Source: a virus (lineage: Duplodnaviria > Heunggongvirae > Uroviricota > Caudoviricetes). From it: a DNA stretch of 46,456 bases. Made by a program: the position numbers and the translations under genes. This document shows, piece after piece, positions 4,962 to 42,944 of the stretch. The stretch lies in IMG/VR virus record IMGVR_UViG_2563366990_000004; one strand, 5' to 3'. The notes under the pieces are model-generated. The model did not search any database. It saw only the letters and a program-made list of their open reading frames with translations, and had not been told where the DNA came from. Position 1 is the first letter of the stretch. Every line of letters begins with the position of its first letter.

Positions 4962-5446
4962 TATCGTGTCCTCAACAATGAATTTTGTGATGTGGTGCCT
5001 GGTGCCTCCAGGTGACGTTAACCAGTTAACAATTAACGCCGGAATACAGAAGGATGCCCGTTACGCCCCGTAAAAGACCACTTTACGGATTTAACTGTTC
5101 CGCGTGCGCATAGCCGCATTCACCGCATCACAAAATTCACTTTAAAAAGGATGGCAGAGCAGTCATGGAGTCGAACTGATGCCACCAAAGACTACACATG
5201 GATATTGTGGCGGGGCTGTCACTTAAGCGTATGGTCAGCCTGACAACCCGGTGTCCTCAAGGGGAAGGAATAACCCCGCCATACTTACCGCCGCGCCATT
5301 TCGCGGATTGCCACAACCGGAAGCGCACGGTCGAATTAAATTTAACGACAAAGTACAGAGAGACGAGCTTCTCCGTGCGCTTTCGTGTTATGCCCTGACT
5401 TTTCAGGGTAAATTAACCAGTGGCAACCTGTTTTTACTGGTGCTAA

Positions 5447-17177: not shown

Positions 17178-17995
17178 AACTGGAAGATTTACCGAAATAC
17201 TACTCCCCAAAATCCCCCGGCCTGACTGATGCATCGGCCTCAACGTCGAAAGATGCGCTGAGTATCACTGATGTGATGGCCGCGCAGGGCATGACACAGA
17301 ATCGGGCTGAGATGGGGTTTTCTGCGTTCCTTGGGAAAATGGGCATTAGTATGAATGACAGAGAGCGGGCAACAGAATTGCTGACAGAATATGCACTCAG
17401 TCGGTGTGATCGCGTGGCGGCGTTAAGAAAACTCCCGGCAGAAATAAAACCGGCAGTGATGCGTATTATGGCTTCGTATGCGTTTGAAGATTATGCCCGT
17501 AGCGCGGCGAGCAAAAAACAGTGCCCCTGCTGTCACGGAAAAAAATTTATTGAAAGCGAGGTTTTTACAAACAAGATCCAGTATCCGGATGGTAAGCCGC
17601 CAGTGTGGGCAAAGTGCACAAAAGGCGTGTATCCGTCTTACTGGGAGGAATGGAAAAAAGTCAGGGAGGTGGTAAAAGTTGCCTGTCCGGAGTGTGGAGG
17701 GAAGGGAGAGGTATCCACTGCCTGTAAAGATTGTCGTGGGCGCGGTGTTGCCATTCATCGTGAAGAGTCGGAAAAACAGGGTGTGCCGGTTTTCAGAAAC
17801 TGTCAGCGTTGTGGTGGGCGTGGCTATGAAAGATTACCTTCAACGGAGGCATTTAATGCCATATGTAATGTAACCGATGCCATATCTCTCGATACATGGA
17901 AAAAAACAGTTAAACGTTTTTACGATACGCTGGTGGTGCAGTTTGATATTGAAGAAGCATGGGCAGAACAACAACTGAAAAAGGTGACCAGATAG
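17174..17995 (+). CDS. Q: Late-gene antitermination protein Q (QuuQ-like) with zinc-finger repeats
   Basis: 273 aa; N-terminus MKLEDLPKYYSPKSP…LSITDVMAAQGM and repeated CxxCxGxG motifs; immediately followed by a lambda-like pR'/qut. Confidence 0.7.
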   Translation: MKLEDLPKYYSPKSPGLTDASASTSKDALSITDVMAAQGMTQNRAEMGFSAFLGKMGISMNDRERATELLTEYALSRCDRVAALRKLPAEIKPAVMRIMASYAFEDYARSAASKKQCPCCHGKKFIESEVFTNKIQYPDGKPPVWAKCTKGVYPSYWEEWKKVREVVKVACPECGGKGEVSTACKDCRGRGVAIHREESEKQGVPVFRNCQRCGGRGYERLPSTEAFNAICNVTDAISLDTWKKTVKRFYDTLVVQFDIEEAWAEQQLKKVTR

Positions 17996-18000
17996 CTTTG

Positions 18001-18050
18001 TTGATTTTTCCCGAATCTGTGGTAAATTTGCCCTAACGATGGGTGTTTTA
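18001..18050 (+). promoter_or_regulatory. Late promoter pR' with qut-like element
   Basis: -35 TTGATT (18001-18006), 16-nt spacer, -10 TAAATT (18023-18028), then TGCCCTAACGATGGGTGTTTT, closely matching lambda pR' (TAAATTTGACTCAACGATGGGTTAATT). Confidence 0.65.
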
Positions 18051-18077
18051 TGCCTGACGTTAGAAGATTTTTTACAC

Positions 18078-18100
18078 CCCGCCGCCTGGCGGGTTTTTTT
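18078..18100 (+). terminator. tR'-like intrinsic terminator
   Basis: CCCGCC-GCCT-GGCGGG hairpin followed by TTTTTTT, ~50 nt downstream of the pR' -10. Confidence 0.65.
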
Positions 18101-18222
18101 ATGACTGAAATCACGCCAGTACAGTAAACGCGCTGGTGGCGGTGAATACCGGTCTTTCAGCTTGCTGGCTTTTTCGACAAGAGTTATTGGTGTGTCACGT
18201 TAACCGGAAAAGGGAAAAAGAC

Positions 18223-18420
18223 ATGCTGAAACAGCAGGATATGACCGAAACCGCCAGAGTGGTGTTTAATGAATTAAGCGTCACCGAACCGGCGACTGTC
18301 GGGGAGATTGCACAGAATACTTACCTTTCACGTGAACGCTGCCAGTTAATACTGACCCAGCTGGTTATGGCGGGGCTGGCAGACTATCAGTTCGGTTGTT
18401 ACAGACGCCTTCAGTCCTGA
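18223..18420 (+). CDS. Small winged-helix-like protein (65 aa)
   Basis: ATG 18223 after an A-rich RBS region; product MLKQQDMTETARVVFNELSVTEPATVGEIAQNTYLSRERCQLILTQLVMAGLADY…; hairpin plus T-run at 18407-18430 overlaps its stop. Confidence 0.45.
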   Translation: MLKQQDMTETARVVFNELSVTEPATVGEIAQNTYLSRERCQLILTQLVMAGLADYQFGCYRRLQS

Positions 18421-18430
18421 AGGCTTTTTT
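18407..18430 (+). terminator. Intrinsic terminator-like hairpin
   Basis: GCCTTC-AGTCCT-GAAGGC followed by TTTTTT. Confidence 0.45.
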
Positions 18431-18570
18431 ATTTGTGGTAAATGGGCGGCTGGTGGGTGTTAGGGGCACTCACCAGCCATCTGCTCATGCGTCCGGATCA
18501 CAAGCAAACCTCAGGCCCACTGCTTTGCGCAAAAGCAGAATGAGCCTATCAGAGACAGGCTTAATGATCC

Positions 18571-19711: not shown

Positions 19712-20434
19712 ATGGCAGTTGTCTGTTCTGTAATTCTGGTTTGTTCCCCGATCAATATTTTTATTGAGAAAGACAAACTTTCACTTGTGCCGGGCATGGT
19801 CATTCTGGTCACCAGAAACATCAGGGAGCTTTTTCGCACTTACACAGACCGGGTTAAGGTTGCTGATATAAATCACGATATAGTCAGTCAATATCTGGAA
19901 GGTGGGCGAAGGCGGATGAGCTCCCCACAGGCATGTTTTCCGCATTATCTCACTTCTGGCATTCATCAGCCTGTACTGGCAGAGGCGTTAATTACTAATC
20001 ATGGATTTCCCAGTGCTCCTTCTGGTGATTTGTCCACGATGACAGGGCTTTCATGTCTTTCTCTGTTTGCCAACGATGAGAGCCTGTCATCATTTTTGTC
20101 AAGGTGTTTAAGCAATACAAGCGATAAAGTCAGGGCAATAATTCAGAGCGATATATCCGTAAACTGGAAGCTTGGTGTTATTGCGTTACAACTGCATATG
20201 AGCGAAAGCTTGTTAAAGAAAAAGCTTAAAGATGAAGGAAACAGCTTCAGCCGCCTGTTGCTGGAAGAGAGGATGCGGGGGGCAGTAAATATGTTATGCT
20301 TTCAATATGGACGGGGAGCGATAGTGGCAGAAAAATGCGGTTATTCAAGCCTGTCTTACTTTATATCAGTATTCCACAGGTATTATGGAGTACCTCCTGA
20401 CAAATATGTGTCTCTGCATATGGTTGACTTTTAA
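19712..20434 (+). CDS. AraC/XylS-family transcriptional regulator (cargo gene)
   Basis: 240 aa; C-terminal double-HTH region (…FSRLLLEERMRGAVNML…IVAEKCGYSSLSYFISVFHRYYGVPP); visibly AT-rich relative to flanking phage genes. Confidence 0.75.
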   Translation: MAVVCSVILVCSPINIFIEKDKLSLVPGMVILVTRNIRELFRTYTDRVKVADINHDIVSQYLEGGRRRMSSPQACFPHYLTSGIHQPVLAEALITNHGFPSAPSGDLSTMTGLSCLSLFANDESLSSFLSRCLSNTSDKVRAIIQSDISVNWKLGVIALQLHMSESLLKKKLKDEGNSFSRLLLEERMRGAVNMLCFQYGRGAIVAEKCGYSSLSYFISVFHRYYGVPPDKYVSLHMVDF

Positions 20435-20556: not shown

Positions 20557-20795
20557 CTCACAATTCAGACGGTTGACAGTTGTCTGTTTTGCGGGGAGTT
20601 TGTTAAAAGAAACTGGCATGGTGAATCCCCCTGAGCGGAGGGGCGACTGGTGCATCAGGTGTTATCTTTGATACCCAGGAAAGTGAACGCGCGGGTTCGG
20701 TGGCACCGGGCTGAACTCACCGGGAGGCACCCGGCACTATGCGCATGATGTACAGATACGCGGCTTCAGCCCCTCTCCGGAGGGGCTTTTCTGTG
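20557..20795 (+). repeat. Repeat unit A (~240 bp) ending in an intrinsic terminator
   Basis: Starts CTCACAATTCAGACGGTTGACAGTTGTCTG; internal hairpin CCCCCTGAGCGGAGGGG; shared block GCGGGTTCGGTGGCACCGGGCTGAACTCACCGGGAGGCACCCGGCA; ends CAGCCCCTCTCCGGAGGGGCTTTTCT. Confidence 0.6.
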
Positions 20796-21042
20796 CCTTA
20801 TGCATCACAGTTTCTGGAACCCTGAGTACTACAGTATCAGTCAGGGTGCTATATTTGCAGATGTGATGAAAGCCTGCCGGCAGGCAGGGCGTATCGGAAA
20901 TGACCCAGTAAGAGAAAACGTTGACTCAGATACCGGTGCTGAGTTACCGGGAAACCGGCATCACATGACCGCTATCCTTCATGGCTCTCTCAGGAGAGCC
21001 TTTTTACTGGAGAAAACCGCTTCCCCGTAAAATGCCGTGTTG

Positions 21043-21282
21043 CTCACAATTCAGTCAGTTGAAGGTTGTCTGCCCGACTGAGAATTTGTTAAAAAATTTC
21101 TGCATGATGAATCCCCCTGTGCGGAGGGGCGGCTGGTGTACGGAATGGTCTCTGATGATCGTTAGCGAGAATGACGCGGGTTCGGTGGCACCGGGCTGAA
21201 CTCACCGGGAGGCACCCGGCATCATGTAATGAACGGTACATAGCGCTACTCTTCAGCCCCTCTCCGGAGGGGCTTTCTTATG
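21043..21282 (+). repeat. Repeat unit B (~240 bp), diverged copy of unit A, ending in an intrinsic terminator
   Basis: CTCACAATTCAGTCAGTTGAAGGTTGTCTG…CCCCCTGTGCGGAGGGG…GCGGGTTCGGTGGCACCGGGCTGAACTCACCGGGAGGCACCCGGCA…CAGCCCCTCTCCGGAGGGGCTTTCTT; a further hairpin with minus-strand terminator polarity at 21290-21315. Confidence 0.6.
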
Positions 21283-21511
21283 GATAAAAAAAGCCCGCAT
21301 GGTGAGATGCGGGCAGCAAGGAATAAACAACAAAACGTGAAGTAATCAATTTTTCAGCTGGCGAATAATACCCGACAGTAATCACTCTGCGCAACTGCGC
21401 GGCCTTTTTCGTATTGCGGGCTGTAGTCTTCCTCCTGCCATTGTCCTGTAACTTCCGGACTTCAGCCCGCCCCTCATCTGACTCACAACATTATCCCGAC
21501 CGGGAGGATTC

Positions 21512-25548: not shown

Positions 25549-25861
25549 ACTTAAGCGATAGTTTATTGAAGAGCCGTTTTTTTTGCAGACAGGCAAAGTT
25601 TTTATCCCATGAACAACCCGGGTGACTGAGTTCGTCATTAAACCATTTGTTAATGTTGTGCTTCAGATGCTGAAGCATCAATGGTGTTAATGTGGTGATA
25701 ATGATATCCAGTGTTTCTGTTGAAAGCATGCCGTAAGGCTCTGAGAGAATGGCCTGAGTGGTTTCGCTATTATCCGGGATAAGCGCTTTTAATTCTGATT
25801 TAACATTTTCGTTCATTATCTGCAAAAACTCTTTGCGTAAATTGTTGTCATTATTATTCAT
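25541..25861 (-). CDS. Unknown 106-aa protein, convergent with and overlapping the 3' end of the 385-aa gene
   Basis: ORF on the opposite strand within the same AT-rich insertion; starts MNNNDNNLRKEF…; 8-nt overlap of the 3' ends. Confidence 0.45.
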   Translation of the reverse strand: MNNNDNNLRKEFLQIMNENVKSELKALIPDNSETTQAILSEPYGMLSTETLDIIITTLTPLMLQHLKHNINKWFNDELSHPGCSWDKNFACLQKKRLFNKLSLKFR

Positions 25862-25986
25862 TTATAAAATCTCATTTGTTGTTACCGGGTGTGTCCTGGT
25901 GCCTGTTGATTATATTCATCGTGAGTACCGGATTATATATCTGACATATCCAGGAATAAGAGAGCTATAAATCCTGATAAATATCC

Positions 25987-26520
25987 ATGAACACCAAAAT
26001 CAAATACGGCCTGTCGGCTGCCGTTCTGGCGCTGATTGCCGCAGGTGCGCCTGCGCCTGAAATCCTCGACCAGTTTCTGGATGAAAAAGAAGGCAACCAC
26101 ACCACGGCATACCGTGATGGCGCGGGTATCTGGACCATCTGCCGGGGTGCCATCATGGTGGATGGTAAGCCTGTGATTCCTGGCATGAAGCTGTCGAAGG
26201 GGAAATGCGACCGGGTTAACGCTATCGAACGGGATAAGGCGCTGGCATGGGTGGAGAAAAACATCAGAGTGCCACTGACCGAACCCCAGAAAGCGGGTAT
26301 TGCGTCATTCTGCCCGTATAACATTGGCCCCGGTAAGTGTTTCCCGTCGACGTTTTATAAACGAATTAATGCAGGCGATCGCAGGGGAGCGTGTGAAGCG
26401 ATTCGCTGGTGGATTAAGGACGGTGGCAGAGACTGCCGTATCCGCTCAAATAATTGCTACGGTCAGGTATCCCGTCGCGACCAGGAGAGTGCGCTGGCAT
26501 GCTGGGGTATCGACAGGTAG
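25987..26520 (+). CDS. R: SAR endolysin (T4-lysozyme family with N-terminal signal-anchor-release domain)
   Basis: 177 aa; N-terminal weakly hydrophobic Gly/Ala-rich stretch (LSAAVLALIAAGAPAP) then lysozyme core resembling R21 (…GIWTICRGAIMVDGKPV…); partners a pinholin. Confidence 0.85.
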   Translation: MNTKIKYGLSAAVLALIAAGAPAPEILDQFLDEKEGNHTTAYRDGAGIWTICRGAIMVDGKPVIPGMKLSKGKCDRVNAIERDKALAWVEKNIRVPLTEPQKAGIASFCPYNIGPGKCFPSTFYKRINAGDRRGACEAIRWWIKDGGRDCRIRSNNCYGQVSRRDQESALACWGIDR

Positions 26521-26817: not shown

Positions 26818-27285
26818 ATGAACCGCGTTCTGTGTGTGGTCATCATTGCCCTGCTGGTGGCCTGTGGTGCGCTTAGTCTGGGGCTGAATCATTACCGCGA
26901 TAACGCCATCACCTACAAAGCGCAGCGCGATAAAAAAGCCAGAGAGCTGGAGCAGGCAAACGCAACCATTACTGATATGCAGGTGCGCCAGCGTGATGTT
27001 GCTGCGCTCGATGCAAAATACTCGAGGGAATTAGCCGATGCGAGAGCTGAAAATGAAACTCTGCGTGCTGATGTTGCCGCTGGTCGTAAGCGCCTGCGGA
27101 TCAACGCCACCTGCCACGGTACCGTGCGTGAAGCCACCAGCACCTCCGGCGTGGATAATGCAACCGGCCCCCGACTGGCAGACACCGCTGAACGGGATTA
27201 TTTCATCCTCAGAGAACGGTTGATGACAATGCAGAAGCAGCTGGAAGGGGCGAAGGAATATATCCGCACTCAGTGTATTAACTAG
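26818..27285 (+). CDS. Rz: Rz i-spanin
   Basis: 155 aa; N-terminal TM then coiled-coil; close to lambda Rz (…[45 protein letters not shown]…). Confidence 0.85.
27053..27223 (+). CDS. Rz1: Rz1 o-spanin lipoprotein embedded in the +1 frame of Rz
   Basis: [56 protein letters not shown]; lipobox VVSAC and proline-rich body as in lambda Rz1. Confidence 0.8.
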
Positions 27286-27980: not shown

Positions 27981-28529
27981 ATGAATGTTAATAAAAAGAA
28001 GCTTGCTGAAATTTTTAATGTCGATATACGCACTATTGATCGCTGGCAAACTCAGGGGCTCCCTCAGATATCTGGTGGAGGAAAAGGTGTTGAGGTCATC
28101 TTTGATTCTGCGAAGGCGATCGAATGGTATGCTCAGCGCGAAGCTGATATTGAAAATGAAAAACTCCGTAAAGAGGTCGAGGATTTGAGGGCTGCCAGCG
28201 AATCAGACCTTCAGCCCGGCACCATTGATTACGAACGTTACCGACTGACGAAGGCACAGGCAGATGCACAGGAGCTGAAAAATGCTCGTGAGGAAGGCCT
28301 TGTCCTCGAGACGGAGTTATTTACCTACATCTTTCAGCGAGTGGCACAGAATATATCTGGGATCCTTGTCCGTGTCCCTCAGACACTGCAGCGTAAATAC
28401 CCTGAGATATCACCCGCACATCTTGATGCTATGAAAACTGAAATCGCGAAAGCATCCGATGTGGCTTCTGAAGCCGGTGAGAATGTGCGCAGGTGGATTG
28501 ATGATTTCAGACGAACTGAGGGCGGCTAA
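27981..28529 (+). CDS. nu1: Terminase small subunit Nu1
   Basis: [36 protein letters not shown]… versus lambda Nu1 MEVNKKQLADIFGASIRTIQNWQEQGMPVLRGGGKG…. Confidence 0.9.
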
Positions 28530-30429
28530 TTCTGCAGGAGCGATAGCAACCGGCCTTCTTGCGCTAAAAATTCCTGTCCCCCTGACGACAGTTCAGTGGG
28601 CAGATCGACACTATTACCTTCCGAAAGAGTCATCTTACACCCCGGGGCGGTGGGAAACACTGCCATTTCAGGTTGCCATCATGAACAGCATGGGGAATGA
28701 CCGGATCCGCACGGTTAATCTGATTAAATCTGCCCGTGTTGGTTATACAAAGATGTTGCTGGGAGTGGAGGCTTATTTTATTGAGCATAAATCACGCAAC
28801 AGCCTTCTTTTCCAGCCTACGGATTCTGCTGCTGAAGATTTTATGAAATCTCATGTGGAACCCACGATCAGGGATGTGTCGGTTTTACTCGATCTTGCAC
28901 CGTGGTTTGGGCGTAAACATCGTGATAATACCCTCACGCTGAAACGCTTTTCATCGGGTGTGGGTTTCTGGTGCCTGGGTGGTGCGGCAGCAAAAAACTA
29001 CCGTGAAAAATCCGTGGATGTGGTCTGCTATGACGAACTTTCCTCGTTCGAGCCGGATGTTGAAAAAGAGGGCTCGCCAACTCTGCTGGGGGATAAGCGT
29101 ATTGAGGGCTCGGTATGGCCAAAATCCATTCGCGGCTCGACGCCTAAAATAAAAGGCACCTGCCAGATCGAAAAAGCGGCCAACGAGTCGGCGCATTTCA
29201 TGCGTTTTTATGTGCCCTGCCCGCACTGTGGGGAGGAGCAGTATCTGAAATTTGGCGATGAATCCACGCCTTTTGGGCTTAAATGGGAGAAGGACAGTCC
29301 CGAAAGTGTTTTCTACCTCTGTGAACATCATGGCTGCGTGATCCATCAGTCTGAGCTTGACCAGAGCAACGGGCGGTGGATCTGTGAAAACACGGGGATG
29401 TGGACCCGTGACGGTCTGACGTTTTTCAGCGCTGCGGGTAATGAAATTCCGCCGCCGCGCTCCATCACATTCCATATCTGGACGGCGTACAGTCCGTTCA
29501 CCACCTGGGTACAGATTGTCTATGACTGGCTGGATGCACTGAAAGATCCCAACGGCCTGAAAACTTTTGTGAACACCACGCTGGGCGAGACCTGGGAAGA
29601 GGCCGTGGGCGAAAAACTCGATCACCAGGTGCTGATGGATAAGGTTGTGCGTTACACGGCGGCGGTACCTGCCCGGGTGGTTTATCTGACGGCGGGCATT
29701 GACTCGCAGCGTAACCGTTTTGAGATGTATGTCTGGGGATGGGCTCCGGGAGAGGAAGCCTTTCTGGTGGATAAAATCATCATTATGGGGCGTCCTGATG
29801 AGGAAGAGACTCTGTTACGTGTGGATGCGGCGATCAACAAAAAATACCGCCATGCAGACGGAACCGAAATGACCATTTCCCGTGTCTGCTGGGACACCGG
29901 GGGGATCGATGGCGAAATCGTTTATCAGAGGTCAAAAAAACACGGTGTTTTCCGGGTGCTGCCGGTAAAAGGCGCATCTGTCTATGGCAAGCCGGTGATC
30001 ACCATGCCAAAAACCCGCAATCAGCGGGGCGTGTATCTGTGTGAAGTGGGGACGGACACCGCAAAAGAAATTCTCTATGCCCGTATGAAAGCCGATCCCA
30101 CGCCTGCGGATGAAGCCACGTCGTATGCCATCCGTTTTCCTGATGATCCGGAGATTTTTTCGCAGACAGAGGCGCAGCAACTGGTCGCGGAAGAGCTTGT
30201 GGAGAAGTGGGAAAAAGGAAAGATGCGTCTGCTGTGGGATAACAAAAAGCGGCGTAACGAAGCGCTGGACTGCCTGGTGTATGCCTACGCGGCATTACGT
30301 GTGTCCGTGCAACGCTGGCAGCTTGATCTGGCTGTACTGGCAAAATCCCGGGAAGAAGAGACGACCCGGCCAACCCTGAAAGAACTGGCAGCGAAGCTGT
30401 CCGGAGGAGTGAATGGTTACAGTCGCTGA
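28501..30429 (+). CDS. A: Terminase large subunit A
   Basis: Near-collinear with lambda gpA (…[48 protein letters not shown]…). Start set at ATG 28501 by alignment to the gpA N-terminus, overlapping Nu1 by 29 nt. Confidence 0.9.
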
Positions 30430-30619
30430 ACTGCAGGCGCTGCGTCAGGCGCGCCTTGATTTATTAACCGGTAAACGGGTGGTGTCTGTCCAGAAAGATG
30501 GTCGCAGAATTGAATATACGGCGGCTTCTCTGGATGAGCTTAACCGTGCGATCAATGATGCGGAGTCGGTACTGGGGACAACCCGACGTCGCCGTCGTCC
30601 GCTGGGAGTGAGGTTATGA
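30413..30619 (+). CDS. W: Head-tail joining protein W
   Basis: 68 aa; …LTGKRVVSVQKDGRRIEYTAASLDEL… versus lambda W …[26 protein letters not shown]…. Confidence 0.85.
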   Translation: MVTVAELQALRQARLDLLTGKRVVSVQKDGRRIEYTAASLDELNRAINDAESVLGTTRRRRRPLGVRL

Positions 30620-32208
30620 AACGAACGCCTGTCCTGATTGATGTGAACGGCGTTCCGCTTCGGGAGAGCCTCAGCTACCACGGGGGCGGTGCAGGATTTG
30701 GTGGGCAAATGGCAGAGTGGTTGCCACCCTCGCAGAGTGCCGATGCGGCCCTGCTGCCCGCGTTGCGTCTGGGGAATGCCCGTGCAGATGATCTGGTACG
30801 CAATAACGGGATAGCGGCTAATGCGGTGGCCCTGCATAAGGATCATATTGTCGGGCATATGTTTCTGATCAGCTACCGTCCGAACTGGCGCTGGCTGGGG
30901 ATGCGGGAGACTGCGGCAAAAAGCTTTGTCGATGAGGTGGAGGCGGCCTGGTCGGAATACGCCGAAGGGATGTTTGGCGAGATCGACGTGGAAGGAAAAC
31001 GCACGTTCACGGAATTTATCCGTGAAGGCGTGGGCGTTCATGCGTTTAACGGCGAAATCTTTGTGCAGCCGGTCTGGGATACGGAAACCACGCAGTTATT
31101 CCGCACGCGTTTTAAAGCCGTGAGTCCGAAACGGGTGGACACGCCAGGACACGGTATCGGGAATCGTTTTCTGCGGGCCGGGGTGGAGGTCGATCGATAT
31201 GGGCGTGCCGTTGCGTACCATATCTGTGAGGATGATTTTCCTCGCTCCGGGAGTGGACGATGGGAACGGATCCCGCGTGAACTTCCCACCGGGCGTCCGG
31301 CCATGCTGCATATTTTCGAGCCGGTGGAGGACGGGCAGACCCGTGGGGCCAATCAGTTTTACAGCGTCATGGAACGGCTGAAGATGCTCGATTCCCTGCA
31401 GGCAACACAGCTTCAGTCAGCCATTGTTAAAGCCATGTATGCAGCGACGATTGAAAGTGAACTTGATACCGAAAAGGCCTTTGAATATATCGCGGGGGCA
31501 CCGCAGGGTCAGCAGGATAATCCGCTCATTAATATTCTGGAGAAGTTCTCCAGTTGGTATGACACGAATCACGTGACGCTGGGCGGTGTCAAAATTCCGC
31601 ACCTTTTCCCCGGTGATGATCTGAAACTGCAGACCGCGCAGGATTCAGACAATGGATTTTCTGCGCTTGAACAGGCGCTGCTGCGGTATATCGCCGCCGG
31701 TCTTGGCGTTTCCTACGAACAGTTGTCCCGTGATTACTCGAAGGTCAGTTACTCAAGTGCCCGCGCCTCCGCCAATGAGTCGTGGCGCTATTTTATGGGG
31801 CGGCGAAAATTTATTGCGGCCCGGCTGGCCACGCAGATGTTTTCCTGCTGGCTGGAAGAGGCACTTCTTCGGGGGATTATCCGTCCGCCACGGTCACGTT
31901 TTGATTTTTATCAGGCGCGATCAGCCTGGTCACGGGCAGAGTGGATTGGTGCCGGAAGAATGGCCATTGACGGGCTCAAGGAGGTCCAGGAATCAGTGAT
32001 GCGCATTGAGGCCGGACTGAGCACGTATGAGAAAGAGCTGGCGCTGATGGGTGAGGATTATCAGGACATTTTCCGCCAGCAGGTCAGGGAATCCGCAGAG
32101 CGGGAAAAAGCCGGACTCTCACGTCCGGTGTGGATAGCACAGGCGTATCAGCAGCAGATAGCGGAGAGCCGCAGGCCGGAAGAGGAGACAAGACCACGTG
32201 AGACGTAA
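30616..32208 (+). CDS. B: Portal protein B
   Basis: 530 aa, lambda gpB size and position after W; 4-nt overlap with W. Confidence 0.9.
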   Translation: MKRTPVLIDVNGVPLRESLSYHGGGAGFGGQMAEWLPPSQSADAALLPALRLGNARADDLVRNNGIAANAVALHKDHIVGHMFLISYRPNWRWLGMRETAAKSFVDEVEAAWSEYAEGMFGEIDVEGKRTFTEFIREGVGVHAFNGEIFVQPVWDTETTQLFRTRFKAVSPKRVDTPGHGIGNRFLRAGVEVDRYGRAVAYHICEDDFPRSGSGRWERIPRELPTGRPAMLHIFEPVEDGQTRGANQFYSVMERLKMLDSLQATQLQSAIVKAMYAATIESELDTEKAFEYIAGAPQGQQDNPLINILEKFSSWYDTNHVTLGGVKIPHLFPGDDLKLQTAQDSDNGFSALEQALLRYIAAGLGVSYEQLSRDYSKVSYSSARASANESWRYFMGRRKFIAARLATQMFSCWLEEALLRGIIRPPRSRFDFYQARSAWSRAEWIGAGRMAIDGLKEVQESVMRIEAGLSTYEKELALMGEDYQDIFRQQVRESAEREKAGLSRPVWIAQAYQQQIAESRRPEEETRPRET

Positions 32209-33703
32209 TCTTTCACACATTATTGCCGCAGCATTCAATGAACCGCTGCTTCTGGAGCCCGCCTATGCGCGGGTTTTCTTTTGCGCGCTCGGGCGCGAGA
32301 TGGGGGCAGCAAGTCTTTCGGTACCACAACAGCAGGTGCAGCTTGATGCTCCCGGAATGCTGGCTGAAACGGACGAGTACATGGCCGGAGGTAAACGACC
32401 GGCCCGTGTTTACCGGGTGGTGAACGGTATTGCTGTACTGCCGGTGACCGGCACGCTGGTGCACCGGCTGGGTGGCATGCGGCCATTTTCCGGAATGACA
32501 GGCTATGACGGCATTGTTGCCTGTCTTCAGCAGGCAATGGCGGACACCTCTGTCCGGGGCGTACTGCTGGATATTGACAGTCCGGGCGGGCAGGCCGCCG
32601 GTGCGTTTGACTGCGCTGACATGATTTACCGCCTCCGGCAGCAGAAGCCGGTCTGGGCACTGTGTAATGACACGGCCTGTTCTGCGGCCATGCTGCTGGC
32701 GTCGGCCTGCTCCCGACGGCTGGTTACCCAGACATCCCGTATCGGCTCCATTGGCGTGATGATGGGCCATGTCAGCTATGCCGGTCATCTGGCGCAGGCC
32801 GGGGTGGATATCACGCTGATTTATGCCGGGGCGCATAAGGTGGATGGCAATCAGTTTGAAGCCTTATCGGCAGAGGTGTGTCAGGACATGCAGCAGCGCA
32901 TTGATGCGGCGCACCGGATGTTTGCCGAAAAAGTGGCGATGTATACGGGGCTGTCTGTGGAAGCTGTCACGGGGACAGAGGCTGCCGTTTTTGAAGGTCA
33001 GTCCGGTATTGAGGCCGGGCTGGCGGATGAGTTAATCAATGCGTCGGATGCCATCAGCGTGATGGCTGCGGCGCTGAACACACATGATACAGGAGGCACT
33101 ATGCCGCAATTAACTGCAACGGAAGCCGCCGCGCAGGAGAACCAGCGAGTGATGGGGATCCTGACGTGTCAGGAAGCGAAAGGACGTGAACAGCTTGCCA
33201 CGATGCTGGCAGGACAACAGGGCATGAGCGTTGAACAGGCCCGGGCGATTCTGGCTGCGGCAGCACCACAGCAGCCGGTGGCATCCGCGCAGAGTGAAGC
33301 CGATCGCATTATGGCGTGTGAAGAAGCTAAAGGTCGTGAACAACTGGCGGCAACGCTGGCGGCGATGCCGGAGATGACGGTGGAAAAAGCCCGCCCGATC
33401 CTGGCGGCTTCACCGCAGGCGGATGCCGGACCCTCACTCCGTGATCAGATTATGGCTTTGGATGAGGCAAAAGGGGCTGAGGCGCAGGCTGAAAAACTGG
33501 CGGCGTTTCCCGGAATGACGGTGGAGGCTGCCCGCGACATTCTGTCCTCATCGCCGGATAAAGCAGAACCGGTTTCTGCATCCACAACCGCCATGTTTGA
33601 ACGCATCATGGCGAACCATTCACCGGCAGCCGTGCAGGGTGGCGTGTCACAGACGTCGGCAGACGGTGATGCGGACGTGAAAATGCTCATGGCCATGCCA
33701 TGA
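32198..33703 (+). CDS. C: Prohead protease/minor capsid protein C (S49/ClpP-like) with nested Nu3-like scaffold region
   Basis: N-terminal half aligns with lambda C (…FNEPLLLEPAYARVFF…VVNGIAVLPV.GTLV…GMTGY.GI…LQQA…GVLLDIDSPGG…FDCADMI…KPVWAL.ND…); C-terminal Ala-rich region carries three ~47-50-aa tandem repeats. GTG start. Confidence 0.85.
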   Translation: MRRNLSHIIAAAFNEPLLLEPAYARVFFCALGREMGAASLSVPQQQVQLDAPGMLAETDEYMAGGKRPARVYRVVNGIAVLPVTGTLVHRLGGMRPFSGMTGYDGIVACLQQAMADTSVRGVLLDIDSPGGQAAGAFDCADMIYRLRQQKPVWALCNDTACSAAMLLASACSRRLVTQTSRIGSIGVMMGHVSYAGHLAQAGVDITLIYAGAHKVDGNQFEALSAEVCQDMQQRIDAAHRMFAEKVAMYTGLSVEAVTGTEAAVFEGQSGIEAGLADELINASDAISVMAAALNTHDTGGTMPQLTATEAAAQENQRVMGILTCQEAKGREQLATMLAGQQGMSVEQARAILAAAAPQQPVASAQSEADRIMACEEAKGREQLAATLAAMPEMTVEKARPILAASPQADAGPSLRDQIMALDEAKGAEAQAEKLAAFPGMTVEAARDILSSSPDKAEPVSASTTAMFERIMANHSPAAVQGGVSQTSADGDADVKMLMAMP

Positions 33704-33739
33704 AGTCAGTGCTGACCATCAATATGAGGTTTTTACAAT

Positions 33740-34087
33740 ATGGTAACGAAAACCATCACTGAACAACGTGCAGAAGTACGTATTTTTGCCGGTAATGATC
33801 CGGCTCATACCGCCACAGGCAGCAGCGGGATTTCTCAGGCAACACCGGCACTGACGCCCCTGATGCTGGATGAAGCCAGCGGGAAACTGGTGGTCTGGGA
33901 CGGACAGAAAGCCGGTAGTGCGGCTGGCATACTGGTACTGCCGCTTGAAGGCACAGAGACGGTGCTGACGTATTACAAGTCGGGAACCTTTGCGACGGAG
34001 GCAATCCGCTGGCCTGAAAGTGTGGATGAACACAAAAAGGCCAACGCCTTTGTCGGCACAGCCCTGAGTCACGCGGCGCTGCCGTAA
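33740..34087 (+). CDS. D: Head decoration protein D
   Basis: …DPAHTATGSSG…TPLMLDEASGKLVVWDG…GILVLPLEG…YYKSGTF… matches lambda gpD. Confidence 0.85.
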   Translation: MVTKTITEQRAEVRIFAGNDPAHTATGSSGISQATPALTPLMLDEASGKLVVWDGQKAGSAAGILVLPLEGTETVLTYYKSGTFATEAIRWPESVDEHKKANAFVGTALSHAALP

Positions 34088-34144
34088 CACGTTATCAGGC
34101 CACCGCGTTGGCCTGACTGATTTCTGAATGAAAGGAACTGATTT

Positions 34145-35173
34145 ATGGGATTGTTTACGACCCGCCAGTTACTCGGTTATACCGAACAAAAAGTGAAATT
34201 TCGTGCGCTGTTTCTGGAACTGTTTTTCCGCCGTACGGTGAATTTCCACACCGAAGAGGTGATGCTGGACAAAATTACCGGAAAAACGCCGGTGGCAGCC
34301 TATGTCTCCCCGGTTGTTGAAGGAAAAGTGCTGCGTCATCGTGGTGGTGAAACCCGCGTGTTACGTCCGGGCTACGTCAAGCCGAAACACGAATTTAATT
34401 ACCAGCAGGCGGTGGAGCGCCTTCCCGGTGAAGATCCGGCGCAGCTGAACGACCCGACCTACCGTCGTCTGCGTATCATCACCGATAACCTCAAACAGGA
34501 AGAGCACGCCATTGTCCAGGTGGAAGAAATGCAGGCGGTGAATGCCGTGCTGTATGGCAAATACACCATGGAAGGGGAGCAGTTTGATACTGTCGAGGTG
34601 GATTTCGGGCGCTCTGAAGGAAATAACATTGAGCAGGCTGACGGTAAAAAATGGTCTGAGCAGGACCGTGATACGTTTGATCCGACGCATGATATTGACC
34701 TCTACTGCGATCAGGCCAGCGGCCTTGTGAATATCGCCATTATGGACGGTACGGTCTGGCGTCTGCTGAATGGCTTTAAGCTGTTCCGCGAAAAACTGGA
34801 TACCCGTCGCGGCTCAAATTCACAACTCGAAACGGCAGTGAAAGATCTGGGCGCAGTGGTGTCCTTCAAGGGGTATTACGGCGATCTGGCCATTGTGGTG
34901 GCGAAAACGTCTTATGTGGCAGAGGACGGTACCGAAAAACGTTATCTGCCGGAGGGCACGCTGGTCCTGGGAAATACGTCAGCGGAGGGCATCCGTTGCT
35001 ATGGTGCCATTCAGGATGCGCAGGCGTTGTCCGAAGGTGTGGTGGCCTCTTCCCGTTATCCGAAACACTGGATGACCGTGGGCGATCCGGCCCGTGAATT
35101 CACCATGACGCAGTCCGCTCCGCTGATGGTGCTGCCGGATCCGGATGAGTTTGTGGTGGTACAGGTGAAATAA
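34145..35173 (+). CDS. E: Major capsid protein E
   Basis: 342 aa; collinear with lambda gpE (…YVSPVVEGKVLRHRGGETRVLRPGYVKPKHE…GDPAREFTMTQSAPLMVLPDPDEFVVVQV…). Confidence 0.9.
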   Translation: MGLFTTRQLLGYTEQKVKFRALFLELFFRRTVNFHTEEVMLDKITGKTPVAAYVSPVVEGKVLRHRGGETRVLRPGYVKPKHEFNYQQAVERLPGEDPAQLNDPTYRRLRIITDNLKQEEHAIVQVEEMQAVNAVLYGKYTMEGEQFDTVEVDFGRSEGNNIEQADGKKWSEQDRDTFDPTHDIDLYCDQASGLVNIAIMDGTVWRLLNGFKLFREKLDTRRGSNSQLETAVKDLGAVVSFKGYYGDLAIVVAKTSYVAEDGTEKRYLPEGTLVLGNTSAEGIRCYGAIQDAQALSEGVVASSRYPKHWMTVGDPAREFTMTQSAPLMVLPDPDEFVVVQVK

Positions 35174-35181
35174 TCCGGGAG

Positions 35182-35210
35182 CGGGGGCGAAATGCCCCCG
35201 TGTCTTTTTT
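35182..35210 (+). terminator. Intrinsic terminator-like hairpin directly after the major capsid gene
   Basis: CGGGGGC-GAAAT-GCCCCCG followed by TGTCTTTTTT, 9 nt after the E stop. Confidence 0.45.
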
Positions 35211-35224
35211 CACAGGGGGCTGAG

Positions 35225-35608
35225 ATGGCAACAAAAGAAGAAAATCTGAATCGTCTTCGTCAACTGGCTGGTCTGCTGGGGCGCGAGGCGGATATGTCGG
35301 GGAGTGCTGCGGATATTGCTCAGCGTGTGTCTGAGTGGGAAGAGGAGCTTGCTGCTTCCCGGGAGGGCATTATGCACTCTGATGAGAGCGGGTCTGATCA
35401 AAATGACACAGACGATGGTGAGCCGTTGAACAACACGGATGCTCCGGATGATGTTAAAGCCGTCCGTGTGCGCAAGTGCCTGCATGTGATGGGGTATTGC
35501 CCGGAGACAGGCCGTCCTGTTGAGCTTACGTTCCGGGGGATGCGTGTTCTGGTGCCATCATCACTGGCAATGGCCATGATACAGCACGGAACGGCTGAGT
35601 ATGCGTGA
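35225..35608 (+). CDS. FI: DNA-packaging protein FI
   Basis: ATG 35225 with GGGGGCTGAG RBS; N-terminus MATKEENLNRLRQLAGLL… resembles lambda FI (MTKDELIARLRSLGEQL…) and position between E and FII. Confidence 0.7.
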   Translation: MATKEENLNRLRQLAGLLGREADMSGSAADIAQRVSEWEEELAASREGIMHSDESGSDQNDTDDGEPLNNTDAPDDVKAVRVRKCLHVMGYCPETGRPVELTFRGMRVLVPSSLAMAMIQHGTAEYA

Positions 35609-35954
35609 TGTTCAGAATGCCTTTGATGCCGCCCTTGTGGGGGTGGACAGCACGATTGTTGAAGTGATGGGGATCCGTGTGCAGTTTACCTCCGGAGCAC
35701 AACGTGGCGGTGAAGTTCAGGGGGTTTTTGACGATCCGGAGTCGCTGGGGTTTGCCGGTGGCGGGGTCCGTATTGAAGGAAGCAGCCCGTCATTATTTGT
35801 GCGGACGGATACGGTGCGTGCCGTGCGGCGTGGTGACACGCTGACCATTAACGGCGAGATGTTCTGGGTGGATCGTGTTTCTCCGGATGACGGGGGCAGC
35901 TGTTATCTCTGGCTCAACCGTGGGCAACCACCCGCTGTTAACCGGCGACGATAA
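35601..35954 (+). CDS. FII: Head-tail connector FII
   Basis: 117 aa; …GVFDDPESLGFAGGGVRIEGSSPSLFVRTDTVRAVRRGDTLTI…FWVDRVSPDDGGSCYLWLNRGQPPAVNRRR nearly identical to the lambda FII C-terminus. Confidence 0.88.
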   Translation: MRDVQNAFDAALVGVDSTIVEVMGIRVQFTSGAQRGGEVQGVFDDPESLGFAGGGVRIEGSSPSLFVRTDTVRAVRRGDTLTINGEMFWVDRVSPDDGGSCYLWLNRGQPPAVNRRR

Positions 35955-35969
35955 ACGCAGGGTGAAATT

Positions 35970-36545
35970 ATGGCGATAAAAGGGCTTGATCAGGCGATTG
36001 ATAATCTGAGCCGGGTTCGTAAAAACGCCATTCCGGCGGCTTCAGCAATGACGATTAACCGCGTGGCCACAACGACGATTAATCAGTCTTCATCACAGGT
36101 TGCCCGGGAGACAAAGGTACGCCGGAAACTGGTTAAGGAACGGTCCAGACTGAAACGGGCCACGGTCAGAAATCCGAATGCCAGAATTATCGTTAACCGC
36201 GGTGATCTCCCTGTTATTAAGCTGGGGATCAGAATGCTGGGGCGTCGTCCGGACAGCATACTCAAAGCCGGTCAGCATCGTTATCAGCGGGCATTTATCC
36301 AGCGATTAAATAATGGGCGCTGGCATGTTATGCAACGTCTTCCCCAGGCCAGATATGAGAAGGGCAATGACGACAAGGGCAGGAAAAAGCGTAATCGCCT
36401 TCCCATTCAGGTGGTGAAAATCCCGATGGCGGCCCCACTGAAACAGGCGTTTGATGAAAACGTTGACCGTATCCGTCGTGAACGCCTGCCCAAAGAACTG
36501 GCATATGCGCTGAAACAACAACTGAGGATTGCGATAAAACGATGA
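35970..36545 (+). CDS. Z: Minor tail protein Z
   Basis: MAIKGLDQAIDNLSRVRKNAIPAASAMTINRVA…VARETKVRRKLVKERSRLKRATV… matches lambda Z. Confidence 0.88.
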   Translation: MAIKGLDQAIDNLSRVRKNAIPAASAMTINRVATTTINQSSSQVARETKVRRKLVKERSRLKRATVRNPNARIIVNRGDLPVIKLGIRMLGRRPDSILKAGQHRYQRAFIQRLNNGRWHVMQRLPQARYEKGNDDKGRKKRNRLPIQVVKIPMAAPLKQAFDENVDRIRRERLPKELAYALKQQLRIAIKR

Positions 36546-36937
36546 AACATACTGATATCCGTGCAGCCGTACTGGATGCACTGGAGAAGCATGACACCGG
36601 GGCGACGCTGTTTGATGGTCGCCCCGCTGTTTTTGAGGAGGCGGATTTTCCGGCGGTCGCGGTTTATCTGACGGATGCAGAGTATACCGGTGAAGAGCTG
36701 GATGCTGATACCTGGCGGGCCACACTGCATATTGAGGTGTTTTTACCGGCACAGGTACCGGATTCAGAGCTTGATCAGTGGATGGAAAGCCGGATTTACC
36801 CGGCGATGGCGGCGATCCCTGCACTGGCAGGCATGATTACCACGATGGTTACGCAGGGCTATGAGTATCGTCGTGATGACGATATGGCATTGTGGAGCTC
36901 TGCAGATCTGACTTATTCCATTACATACGAGATGTGA
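36542..36937 (+). CDS. U: Tail terminator protein U
   Basis: [44 protein letters not shown]…, lambda U-like over its full length. Confidence 0.88.
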
Positions 36938-36944
36938 GGATGAT

Positions 36945-37694
36945 ATGGCAACACCAAATCCCCTGGCGCCGGTAAAAGGTTCCGGCACCACGCTCTGGGT
37001 TTACACCGGTAAGGGCGATGCTTATGCAAACCCGCTGTCAGATGATGAGTGGACGCGTCTGGCAAAAATAAAGGATCTGACCCCCGGCGAGATGACGGCG
37101 GAATCCTACGACGATAACTATCTGGATGATGAGGATGCCGACTGGGTATCCACCGGGCAGGGGCAGAAATCCGCCGGTGACACCAGTTTTACGCTGGCCT
37201 GGAAGCCCGGCGAGAAAGGGCAGCGTGATTTGATTGCCTGGTTTGACAGCAGTGAGACCCGGGCCTACAAAATCCGCTTCCCGAACGGTACGGTGGATGT
37301 GTTCCGTGGCTGGGTGAGCGCCATTGGTAAAGCGGTGACCGCCAAAGAAGTGATTACCCGTACGGTAAAAATCACCAATATCGGTCGTCCTTCGCTGGCG
37401 GAGGATCGGGGAGAAATCACACCGGTCACCGGTATTACCGTGACGCCACTAACGGGGAATGTGGCAAAAGGTCAGAGCACCACCCTGACAGTGGCCGTTC
37501 AGCCGGAAGGCGCAACGGATAAAACATTCCGCGCAACGTCGGCAAATCAGAATTTCGCCACCATTACCGTGAAAGGGAACACGATCACCGTGAAAGGTGT
37601 TGCGGCAGGTAAAGCGCAGATCCCTGTTGTCACCGGCAACGGTGAGTTTGCGGCGGTGGCGGAGATCACCGTCACGGATGGCGCTGCGGGCTGA
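36945..37694 (+). CDS. V: Major tail protein V (with C-terminal Ig-like domain)
   Basis: 249 aa at the lambda V position; C-terminal region with Big_2-like pattern (…[32 protein letters not shown]…). Confidence 0.85.
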
Positions 37695-37710
37695 GGGGAG
37701 GAGATCAAGC

Positions 37711-38133
37711 ATGTTCCTGAAAACAGAACAATTTGAATATAACGGTGTGTCCGTCACGCTGTCGGAGCTGTCCGCGCTGCAGCGGTTTGATTATATGAAG
37801 TTTGTTTCAGACGCAGAACAACAGGGGACAACGAAGCATGATGTCGTGCACATTAACCAGCGATATCTGGAAACGGCATCCCTGCTTGTGGCGATGTCGC
37901 TATGGCATTCCCATTCCCTCAAAGGCACTCTGGCCTCTCCGGAGACAGAGATGCAGCAGATCCGCCGTGAAGTGATGCTGGGATGGCCTGCTGATGCACT
38001 GAATCAGGCAACGAACCGGGTGCTTTATCTTTCAGGTATGCTGGATAACCGGCACGATGCCGATCCTGAACAAACCGGGAAAGCAGAAGCGACTGAGCCG
38101 GTAACATCAAAAAAGCATTCGAAGGCGAGCTGA
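37711..38133 (+). CDS. G: Tail assembly chaperone G
   Basis: MFLKTEQFEYNGVSVTLSELSALQRFDYMKF…LLVAMSLWH… matches lambda G; ATG 37711. Confidence 0.85.
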   Translation: MFLKTEQFEYNGVSVTLSELSALQRFDYMKFVSDAEQQGTTKHDVVHINQRYLETASLLVAMSLWHSHSLKGTLASPETEMQQIRREVMLGWPADALNQATNRVLYLSGMLDNRHDADPEQTGKAEATEPVTSKKHSKAS

Positions 38134-38573
38134 ACTTTGTCCTGAAACTGGCGCGAGAGATGGGGAGACCCGACTGGCGCGCCATGCTTGCCGGGATGAC
38201 ATCCACCGAATATGCCGACTGGCGACGTTTTTACTGCACGCATTATTTTCAGGATACCCAACTGGACGCTCATTTTTCCGGGCTGATGTACGCCGTACTC
38301 AGCCTGTTTTTTGGCGATCCGGATATGCATCCGGCGGATTTCAGTCTGCTTGCGCCAGTGTGTGAGGAAGAGCAGACGGAGATGCCGGACGAGGAAGACA
38401 TGCTGATGCAGAAAGCGGCAGGAGTTGCCGGAGGCGTCCGGTTCTGTGGGGTGGGTGGGGGCGATATTTCACCTTCTGCGGATGTGGTGGATGTCAGCGA
38501 AGATGATGTTGCATTAATGATGGCTTCAGCGGGGATTTCCGGAGGTGTGAGATATGTCCCAGCCAGCGGGTGA
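38109..38573 (+). CDS. T: T segment of the G-T tail assembly chaperone, reached by -1 programmed frameshift from G (fusion 37711..38573)
   Basis: Slippery heptamer A-AAA-AAG at 38109-38115 in the G zero frame; the -1 frame is open from there to 38573 and contains the track ORF 38160..38573. Confidence 0.7.
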   Translation, partial: KKAFEGELNFVLKLAREMGRPDWRAMLAGMTSTEYADWRRFYCTHYFQDTQLDAHFSGLMYAVLSLFFGDPDMHPADFSLLAPVCEEEQTEMPDEEDMLMQKAAGVAGGVRFCGVGGGDISPSADVVDVSEDDVALMMASAGISGGVRYVPASG

Positions 38574-41166: not shown

Positions 41167-41492
41167 AAACCTTTCGCTGGAAAGTGAAGCCGGATATGGA
41201 GGTGAACTCGCAGCCGTCGGTGCGTGAAGTGCGTTTTGGTGACGGGTACTCACAGCGTATGGCGGCAGGGCTGAATGCTGACCTGAAAACATACCGGGTG
41301 ACGCTTTCCGTGACCCGGGAGGAGGCCCGGCATCTGGAAGCGTTTCTGGCAGAGCACGGGGGCTGGAAGGCATTTTTGTGGAAGCCACCCTATGCATACC
41401 GGCAGATAAAGGTGACCTGCGCCGGGTGGTCTGCGCGGGTCGGGATGTTGCGCGTTGAGTTCAGCGCGGAGTTTAAGCAGGTGGTGAACTGA
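41163..41492 (+). CDS. M: Minor tail protein M
   Basis: MKTFRWKVKPDMEVNSQPSVREVRFGDGYSQR… matches lambda M. Confidence 0.88.
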   Translation: MKTFRWKVKPDMEVNSQPSVREVRFGDGYSQRMAAGLNADLKTYRVTLSVTREEARHLEAFLAEHGGWKAFLWKPPYAYRQIKVTCAGWSARVGMLRVEFSAEFKQVVN

Positions 41493-42190
41493 TGCAGGAT
41501 ATTCACGAAGAAAGCCTGAACGAGTCGGTTAAGTCAGAGCAGTCACCGCGGGTGGTGCTCTGGGAAATCGACCTGACGGTGCAGGGCGGTGAGCGGTATT
41601 TTTTCTGCAATGAGCTGAATGAAAAAGGGGAGCCGGTGACCTGGCAGGGGCGGAAGTATGAGGCGTACCCGATTGAGGGCAGCGGCTTTGAGATGAACGG
41701 AAAGGGCAGCAGTGCCCGCCCGTCGCTGACGGTCTCCAATCTTTTCGGCCTTGTCACCGGGATGGCGGAGGATTTGCAGAGCCTGGTGGGTGCCACGGTG
41801 GTCCGTCGCCGGGTGTATGCGCGTTTTCTGGATGCGGTGAATTTTGTGGCAGGCAATCCTGAGGCCGACCCGGAGCAGGAGCTGACGGACCGGTGGGTGG
41901 TGGAGCAGATGTCATCGCTGACGGCCATGACGGCCTCGTTTGTGCTGGCGACACCGACGGAGACGGACGGTGCGCTGTTTCCCGGTCGCATCATGCTGGC
42001 GAACACCTGTATGTGGGATTACCGGGGCGATGAGTGCGGGTATAACGGTCCGGCAGTGGCGGATGAGTTCGACAACCCCACCACGGATATCCGGAAGGAC
42101 AGATGCAGTAAATGCATGCGCGGGTGTGAGATGCGCGGCATGGCGGCCAATTTTGGCGGTTTCCTTTCCATCAATAAACTTTCGCAGTAA
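41492..42190 (+). CDS. L: Minor tail protein L
   Basis: 232 aa, lambda L length and position; ATGA overlap with M. Confidence 0.85.
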   Translation: MQDIHEESLNESVKSEQSPRVVLWEIDLTVQGGERYFFCNELNEKGEPVTWQGRKYEAYPIEGSGFEMNGKGSSARPSLTVSNLFGLVTGMAEDLQSLVGATVVRRRVYARFLDAVNFVAGNPEADPEQELTDRWVVEQMSSLTAMTASFVLATPTETDGALFPGRIMLANTCMWDYRGDECGYNGPAVADEFDNPTTDIRKDRCSKCMRGCEMRGMAANFGGFLSINKLSQ

Positions 42191-42200
42191 ATCCCGTTTT

Positions 42201-42944
42201 ATGACACAGACTGAATCAGCGATTCTGGTGCATGCCCGGCGGTGTGCGCCAGCGGAGTCGTGCGGCTTCGTGATAAGCACCCCGGAGGGCGAACGGTACC
42301 AGCCCTGCATGAATATCTCCGCAGAGCCGGAGGCGTATTTTCGTATTACACCGGAAGACTGGCTGCAGGCACAGATGCAGGGGGAGATTGTGGCGCTGGT
42401 CCACAGTCATCCCGGTGGTCTGCCCTGGCTGAGCGAGGCGGACCGGCGGCTGCAGATAAAGAGTGCCCTGCCCTGGTGGCTGGTCTGCCGGGGTGAAATT
42501 CACCGGTTCCGCTGTGTGCCGCACCTGACCGGACGGCGCTTTGAACACGGTGTGACGGACTGTTACACCCTGTTCCGGGATGCATACCATCTGGCGGGGA
42601 TAACGCTGCCGGATTTTGTGCGTGAGGATGACTGGTGGCGCAACGGCCAGAACCTGTACCTGGACAACCTGGCGGAAAACGGCTTTTACCGGGTGTCTCC
42701 GTCCTGTGCACAGGCGGGCGATATCCTGCTGTGCTGCTTCGGCGCATCGGTGCCGAATCATGCCGCCATTTACTGTGGCAACGGTGAACTGCTTCACCAT
42801 ATACCTGAACAACTGAGTAAACGGGAGAGGTATTCTGAAAAATGGCAACGACGAACGCATTCTGTCTGGCGTCACCGCCACTGGTCCGCATCTGCCTTCA
42901 CGGGGATTTACAACGATTTGGTCGCCGCATCAGCCTGTATGTGA
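42201..42944 (+). CDS. K: Tail assembly protein K (MPN/JAB plus NlpC/P60-like)
   Basis: ATG 42201; …ILVHARRCAPAESCGFVISTPEGERYQPCMNISAEPE…ALVHSHPGGLPWLSEADRR… matches lambda K. The track ORF starting at 41940 is an upstream extension through L and is rejected as the start. Confidence 0.85.
   Translation: MTQTESAILVHARRCAPAESCGFVISTPEGERYQPCMNISAEPEAYFRITPEDWLQAQMQGEIVALVHSHPGGLPWLSEADRRLQIKSALPWWLVCRGEIHRFRCVPHLTGRRFEHGVTDCYTLFRDAYHLAGITLPDFVREDDWWRNGQNLYLDNLAENGFYRVSPSCAQAGDILLCCFGASVPNHAAIYCGNGELLHHIPEQLSKRERYSEKWQRRTHSVWRHRHWSASAFTGIYNDLVAASACM

Follow-up and report, generated by a model that had tools for sequence, protein, structure and literature searches.

Introduction

[quoted passage not shown] The family PF03589 to which lambda Q belongs has been named the Q-lambda family and is distinct from the Q21 (PF06530) and Q82 (PF06323) families (PMC9388147). 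Gene 23 of phage P22 also encodes a Q-lambda-family antiterminator, and P22 differs very little from lambda in its promoter and pause element. The Q protein of phi80 (gp17) is the closest to the one described here among the compared named phages that have an annotated late promoter. Curated records of P22 and phi80 place a promoter, a qut or Q site, an RNA start, and a terminator at the same relative positions as the elements described below, and in the phi80 record the Q site is annotated inside the promoter spacer. In the Stx1 and Stx2a phages of strain Sakai, pR' is furthermore the source of StxS, a 258-nt sRNA that is processed to 74 nt and for which activation of rpoS and binding of Hfq have been demonstrated (PMC7547250).

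Here, we analyzed 46,456 nt of DNA (hereafter, the window) from a virus of the Caudoviricetes (Duplodnaviria; Heunggongvirae; Uroviricota; IMG/VR record IMGVR_UViG_2563366990_000004). Our results suggest that the region around positions 17996 to 18100 is very probably the late-gene regulatory cassette of a lambdoid Escherichia coli prophage, whose Q belongs to the Q-lambda family in its long, phi80-like form. We regard it as a typical, uncharacterised member of a textbook antitermination system.

Results

Organization of the Cassette and Its Q Gene

A preliminary description of the window had proposed a lambda-type pR'/qut/tR' cassette in this region. This proposal was borne out, in that a Q-lambda-family gene adjoins the cassette and all of the elements were found, at the following positions:

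17174-17995, + strand: Q antiterminator gene (273 aa; Q-lambda family, with a second, phi80-type zinc ribbon)
18001-18006, + strand: pR' −35 hexamer TTGATT (lambda and P22 have TTGACT, and phi80 an annotated TTGCAT, at the same position)
18007-18022, + strand: 16-nt spacer TTTCCCGAATCTGTGG, a candidate QBE for this Q type by position and conservation
18020-18028, + strand: extended −10, TGgTAAATT, with a hexamer (TAAATT) identical to that of lambda pR'
18028-18033, + strand: TTGCCC, at the place of the lambda −35-like TTGACT in the alignment with lambda, 1 bp upstream of the pause element
18035-18043, + strand: sigma70-dependent pause element AACGATGGG (AACGAT plus GGG), identical to lambda +1 to +9
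18050-18052, + strand: predicted pause site, about +16 to +18
18078-18100, + strand: tR' intrinsic terminator, CCCGCC-GCCT-GGCGGG followed by TTTTTTT, from a terminator scan and folding
18035-18100, + strand: predicted terminated pR' leader RNA of about 64-66 nt (5' hairpin, single-stranded AGAAGAUUUUUUACA, terminator hairpin, U7)

The Q gene is encoded on the same strand as the cassette, with 5 bases between its stop at 17995 and the start of the −35 hexamer at 18001. Its product is full length, occurs in identical copies in several independent viral contigs, and has a profile match to PF03589 (E = 5e-52). The only other Pfam match of this protein was a weak one to the DnaJ zinc finger; neither Q21 (PF06530) nor Q82 (PF06323) was matched. 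Lambda Q was recovered with this Q by tblastn, and the window Q matches the solved lambda Q chains 7UBM (7UBM_Q, E = 1e-41) and 4MO1. Identity to lambda Q is 32% (BLASTP, E = 4e-41), with a 68-aa insertion in the window Q that duplicates the zinc ribbon; lambda Q is 66 aa shorter and lacks the second ribbon. Identity to phi80 gp17 is 41% over the full length, second zinc ribbon included. P22 is unlike the window in having a short Q (207 aa), a lambda-type spacer and QBE, and a terminator hairpin of unrelated sequence.

The second CxxC...CxxC zinc ribbon, which accounts for the weak DnaJ-type (CXXCXGXG) match, is encoded at window positions 17513-17830 (Q residues 114-218). It is also present in the Q proteins of phi80, SfV, and the K-12 prophage Qin, and is absent from lambda Q. 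In lambda, the zinc-ribbon arm of Q contacts QBE positions 11-13, and the duplication may therefore relate to the differing spacer sequence of the window.

A pause of the phage 82 type (at +25, with GCC at +15 to +17) was considered for this locus and rejected, as its geometry did not fit, the window Q hits lambda Q, and PF03589 is the Q-lambda family (PMC9388147).

Predicted Late Promoter, Spacer, and Pause Element

Positions are numbered from the first A of AACGAT, following the P22 record, where this base is the 5' nucleotide of the P-late RNA; transcription in the window would thus start at 18035. Window and lambda pR' are identical at 21 of 24 bases between −14 and +10, and the two share a PF03589 Q, the −10 hexamer TAAATT, AACGATGGG at +1 to +9 with a 6-bp gap from the −10, and a terminator ahead of co-oriented lysis and head/tail genes. 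The window differs from lambda in using a TG-extended −10 instead of the stronger lambda −35, and in having TTGCCC instead of the −35-like TTGACT. Assignment of TTGCCC as a −35-like element is weak because this segment varies among close relatives. The pause-element homologue of phi80 is AACGCTGGG; its −35 and −10 hexamers differ from those of the window, as does its spacer (TCGCGGA against TTCCCGA at the equivalent place).

The spacer is 1 bp shorter than the QBE-containing spacer of lambda and unrelated to it in sequence, and it is kept only among phages with this Q type. With this Q type it is nearly invariant, in phages Evi, mEp460_ev081, and HK225, in E. coli, and in prophages of Klebsiella, Enterobacter, Kluyvera, Erwinia, and Chimaeribacter. 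Since nothing is shared with the lambda QBE, it is the position of TTTCCCGAATCTGTGG, where lambda Q binds and the phi80 Q site is annotated, and its conservation within the class that suggest that it is bound by its cognate Q. The earlier characterization of promoter and qut as close to those of lambda therefore held for the −10, the pause element, and their spacing, and failed for the spacer. Put differently, 'lambda-like' appears to be right for the signals of polymerase and sigma and wrong for the determinant of Q specificity.

The exact 9-mer AACGATGGG has one copy in the whole window, and a 22-nt motif comprising the spacer plus −10 is likewise unique there (chance expectation, 0). Because each of the two motifs occurs once, no second qut-like site is present in the window, including the repeats at 20557-21282. 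Among related loci, AACGATGGG was found with at most one mismatch in most of 59 surveyed cassettes, and the ordered elements were conserved in 48 distinct cassettes located 3' of Q-lambda-family genes in many genera of Enterobacterales. A comparison of 28 distinct close relatives showed divergence in the 3' end of Q and in the flank beyond the terminator, while everything from the −35 through +33 is nearly invariant (TTGATT fully so).

A generic promoter scan of the window made no call at pR', because only 8 of the 12 hexamer positions match and the TG extension is not credited. The elements of a sigma70 promoter directly 3' of Q are nonetheless present and placed like the annotated promoters of P22 and phi80, the activity of this promoter being predicted. 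Application of the rules for the lambda and phage 82 pR' promoters (PMC5001585) predicts the pause noted above, where G at +8, T at +17, and G at +18 fit the G-10/Y-1/G+1 pause consensus.

Terminator and Leader Length

The tR' hairpin consists of a stem of six G-C pairs (18078-18083 with 18088-18093) closed by the loop GCCT (hairpin dG −11.9 kcal/mol) and followed by T7 at 18094-18100. It spans +44 to +66, the T7 ending at +66. From the end of the −10 at 18028 to the first stem base at 18078, the distance agrees with the reported value of about 50 nt. This distance had been set against the 194 nt of the lambda 6S RNA, with the implication that it was unusually short, and the terminated RNAs do differ in length (about 65 nt in the window and 193-194 nt in lambda).

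To place this difference in context, we compiled Q-lambda-family loci from one genome per species together with phage loci, identified the best AACGATGGG match after each Q gene, and then took the first hairpin plus T-run, which yielded 59 cassettes. The median end of the T-run was +63, and in 50 of the 59 it fell between +53 and +72. Outliers were lambda (+193, a value read by hand because the hairpin finder misses the long-range tR' hairpin of lambda) and a few cassettes between +97 and +166. In the P22 record tR' (t-late) is annotated at +31 to +59, and the phi80 terminator ends at about +74. Homologues of the window tR' are annotated at the equivalent place in HK225 and SfV, and K-12 Qin shares this layout. 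The implied oddity of the short distance is thus not upheld; the predicted leader of the window (+66) is typical of the Q-lambda family, in which lambda is the outlier.

Predicted Leader RNA

Folding of the 66-nt leader gave −19.3 kcal/mol (z = −2.2), with a U-rich stretch ahead of the terminator hairpin and with AGAAGAUUUUUUACA predicted to be unpaired. In the 28 distinct close relatives, the leader is invariant from +11 to +33 and nearly so from +7 to +10 (+10 varies). Between subclasses of the Q-lambda family, leader sequences differ apart from AACGATGGG and CGTT. An inverted repeat formed by AACG (+1 to +4; 18035-18038) and CGTT (about +20 to +27; 18058-18061) is kept in 41 Q-lambda-family leaders (loci L001-L168), those of lambda and P22 included. 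The repeat is 94% pairable, yet its spacing is variable and covariation is absent, and a selected RNA helix is therefore unsupported. RNAalifold gave no meaningful consensus structure for the 41 leaders.

No Rfam family reached threshold on the leader; the scores for OmrA-B (20.6 bits, below the threshold of 40; E = 0.25) and for the Trp leader were at chance level. A full-text literature search with six strings (the window spacer plus −10, and leader variants) returned no paper in which they are printed, and a search for quuQ/ydfT together with sRNA or terminator found nothing relevant. We also considered HnrS, a 66-nt multicopy prophage sRNA that is recognized by 15 nt perfectly complementary to where the mazF coding sequence ends (PMC13502914). 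This identity was ruled out, as a query with the K-12 mazF 3' end found no complement anywhere in the window at up to 2-3 mismatches.

Genes and Terminators Downstream

The order of genes after tR' is a 65-aa ORF, a DNA methylase, a YdeO/GadX-like AraC regulator, two STnc100 copies, a DUF1737/SASA esterase, and DUF826 and DUF1327 proteins, followed by the lysis and morphogenesis genes. The features located were:

18223-18420, + strand: 65-aa ORF (phrog_331), the stop of which overlaps the second terminator
18407-18430, + strand: second intrinsic terminator (terminator scan), conserved in relatives
19712-20434: AraC-family regulator, most like YdeO/GadX, in the putatively Q-gated cargo region
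20587-20796 and 21073-21285: two tandem STnc100 copies (Rfam, 165 and 142 bits), both closed by the terminator AGCCCCTCTCCGGAGGGGCT
20768-20787, 20983-21000, and 21255-21274, + strand: three terminator-like hairpins (scan), two of which end the STnc100 copies
25758-25970, + strand: holin, assigned by synteny only, with no profile match
25987-26520, + strand: endolysin
26818-27285, + strand: Rz-like spanin
27981-46456, + strand: morphogenesis operon (small and large terminase, portal, major head protein, tape measure, and others), co-oriented with pR'

Kilobases of cargo and further terminators had been described ahead of the lysis and structural genes, and this description is accurate: about 7.7 kb, all on the + strand, precede the holin. 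The corresponding distance is about 0.6 kb in lambda, and phi80 has no cargo block, its holin lying within about 0.35 kb. Cargo and several terminators before the lysis genes are an arrangement also found in Stx phages, and the lysis region is syntenic with those of phage Stx2_EH1910 and K-12 Qin. It had also been suggested that all genes beyond tR' depend on Q-modified polymerase. For the lysis and morphogenesis genes, such dependence on Q is a sound inference; the cargo genes (the methylase, the YdeO/GadX-like regulator, STnc100, and the esterase) may have promoters of their own.

Several other features of the window were observed. The two STnc100 copies, located between the AraC-like regulator and the esterase gene, are the repeat units of the preliminary description. 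The AraC-family regulator itself is similar to the Psr/PatE-type regulators of the acid-resistance island, which prophages encode (PMC13502914). Between the 65-aa ORF and the methylase lies a 150-nt intergenic stretch (18421-18570) that is 92% identical across phages with unrelated Q and contains hairpins at 18448-18478, about 18521-18539, and 18543-18561; it matched no Rfam family and may serve the methylase as a conserved leader or regulatory RNA. ATCTGTGGTAAAT (18015-18027) and ATTTGTGGTAAAT (18431-18443) form a 13-nt direct repeat whose copies are 416 nt apart, the second lying 3' of the second terminator. That this second occurrence of ATYTGTGGTAAAT is a duplicated qut was ruled out, as it belongs to a module common to phages with unrelated Q and has no pause element; it is probably either a promoter-like −10 for the methylase or a chance match. 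Upstream of Q, the early region is Qin-like, with Rfam matches to DicF (5149-5200, − strand) and to sok of hok/sok (13916-14088, + strand), and with ydfU (DUF968) and rusA.

Distribution and Mosaicism

Of 5426 complete E. coli genomes, 2518 (46%) contain the 110-bp element with an identity of at least about 86%; O157:H7, O55:H7, O111, and ST131 are among them. The Stx2a-converting phage Stx2_EH1910 carries a cassette of 98% identity, followed downstream by a methylase, tRNAs, and stx2a.

Comparison of relatives localized joints at window positions 18078-18103. In Evi and mEp460_ev081, which have the same Q, homology ends at the end of the T-run; in many Stx2 phages and in phiP27, it starts at the first base of the terminator stem. 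Upstream of the shared terminator, phiP27 has a different region, and Stx2_14040 has a Q of the Q21 family, with the same tR' hairpin 3' of that gene. Because homology breaks on both of its sides, the terminator appears to be a joint for the exchange of Q/qut modules.

Survey loci L148-L167 comprise identical 207-aa lambda Q genes on short contigs of assemblies labelled Bacillota, Bradyrhizobium, Kitasatospora, Segatella, and others. These almost certainly reflect lambda DNA contamination or spike-in in public assemblies.

Discussion

The arrangement described here is consistent with the mechanism established for lambda and related phages (PMC9388147; PMC5001585). RNA polymerase with sigma70 would initiate constitutively at pR' (+1 at about 18035), and rebinding of sigma region 2 to the −10-like AACGAT (+1 to +6) would then pause polymerase near +16/+17. 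Without Q, elongation would resume and end at the hairpin and U7 (+44 to +66), with release of an RNA of about 65 nt. After induction, Q bound at its site in the spacer would load with NusA onto the paused complex and narrow the RNA-exit channel, such that terminator hairpins would be unable to form. Polymerase modified in this way would pass tR' and all later terminators, transcribe the roughly 7.7 kb of cargo, and so reach the lysis and morphogenesis genes. The elements, their order, spacing, and conservation, and the Q family are observed; promoter activity, the position of the pause, binding of Q to the spacer, and readthrough are predicted by homology.

Alternative roles for the locus can be weighed against this mechanism. 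It is very improbable that the site is not the late promoter, that its hairpin instead ends the early operon running from pR to Q, and that the late genes are driven from elsewhere, for example from near STnc100 at 20557-21282. The silence of the generic scan at pR' and its weak call at 20397-20424 are consistent with such an arrangement. Cargo genes at this location often have promoters of their own that are active in lysogens, as is generally known of Stx-phage morons, and this too would agree with it. However, the pause element and the Q-type-specific spacer occur nowhere else in the window, Q needs a QBE plus a pause element to load (PMC9388147), and what the repeats contain is STnc100 sRNA, each copy ending in a terminator, and no qut. 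Moreover, in P22 and phi80 the homologues of the site are annotated as late promoters. We also consider it quite improbable that the cassette is an inert relic of a defective prophage that is conserved by descent alone and controls nothing. The prophage may indeed be cryptic, given that its early region (DicF, sok/hok, ydfU) resembles that of the cryptic Qin of K-12, and the defective Qin itself retains a homologous pR'-tR'. Inertness is harder to reconcile with a full-length Q that is identical in independent viral contigs, with lysis and morphogenesis genes that are long ORFs with strong family matches, and with the nearly identical cassette upstream of stx2a in Stx2_EH1910.

A further possibility concerns the terminated RNA of about 66 nt, which might in addition act in trans as an Hfq-binding sRNA in lysogens, as a short counterpart of StxS; we consider this unlikely. 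Like StxS, the RNA predicted here from sequence would be a constitutive pR' transcript that in lysogens stops at tR', short of the toxin or cargo genes. Beyond this precedent, antiterminated promoters have been proposed as a source of sRNAs (PMC7547250). The predicted order, from a 5' hairpin through a single strand rich in A and U to a terminator with a U7 tail, is typical of Hfq-dependent sRNAs, the invariant and nearly invariant leader positions extend well past the pause site, and the element is present in close to half of the complete E. coli genomes. The U7 tail and the unpaired AGAAGAUUUUUUACA are the terminator and single-stranded region sought in sRNAs, a permissive criterion that would be expected of any tR' as well. 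Against a function in trans stand the lack of an Rfam family at threshold, the absence of the leader and spacer strings from the literature searched, the conserved AACG/CGTT repeat without covariation, and an invariance that could come from recent spread by recombination. In particular, because the leader differs between Q-lambda subclasses save for AACGATGGG and CGTT, a role in cis fits better than a shared target in trans. Hfq binding and target pairing by the leader RNA may nevertheless occur, and if so, +7 to +33 would be the seed and the RNA would have a host-directed function besides the gating of late genes.

Collectively, our analysis supports the reading of this locus as a Q-dependent late-gene cassette and, for a Q type that E. 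coli prophages carry very commonly, locates the late promoter, the pause element, tR', and a likely Q site. These assignments are of modest practical value, being useful for annotation and for the design of reporter and qut-mutant experiments. The cassette in Stx2_EH1910 suggests that there is at least one phage in which stx2a is under the control of this Q type. In addition, one tR' hairpin serves unrelated Q families (Q-lambda and Q21), which points to module swapping at the terminator. Finally, the survey corrects an expectation centered on lambda: leaders of about 55-70 nt are the rule for the Q-lambda family, and the 194-nt 6S RNA of lambda is the exception.
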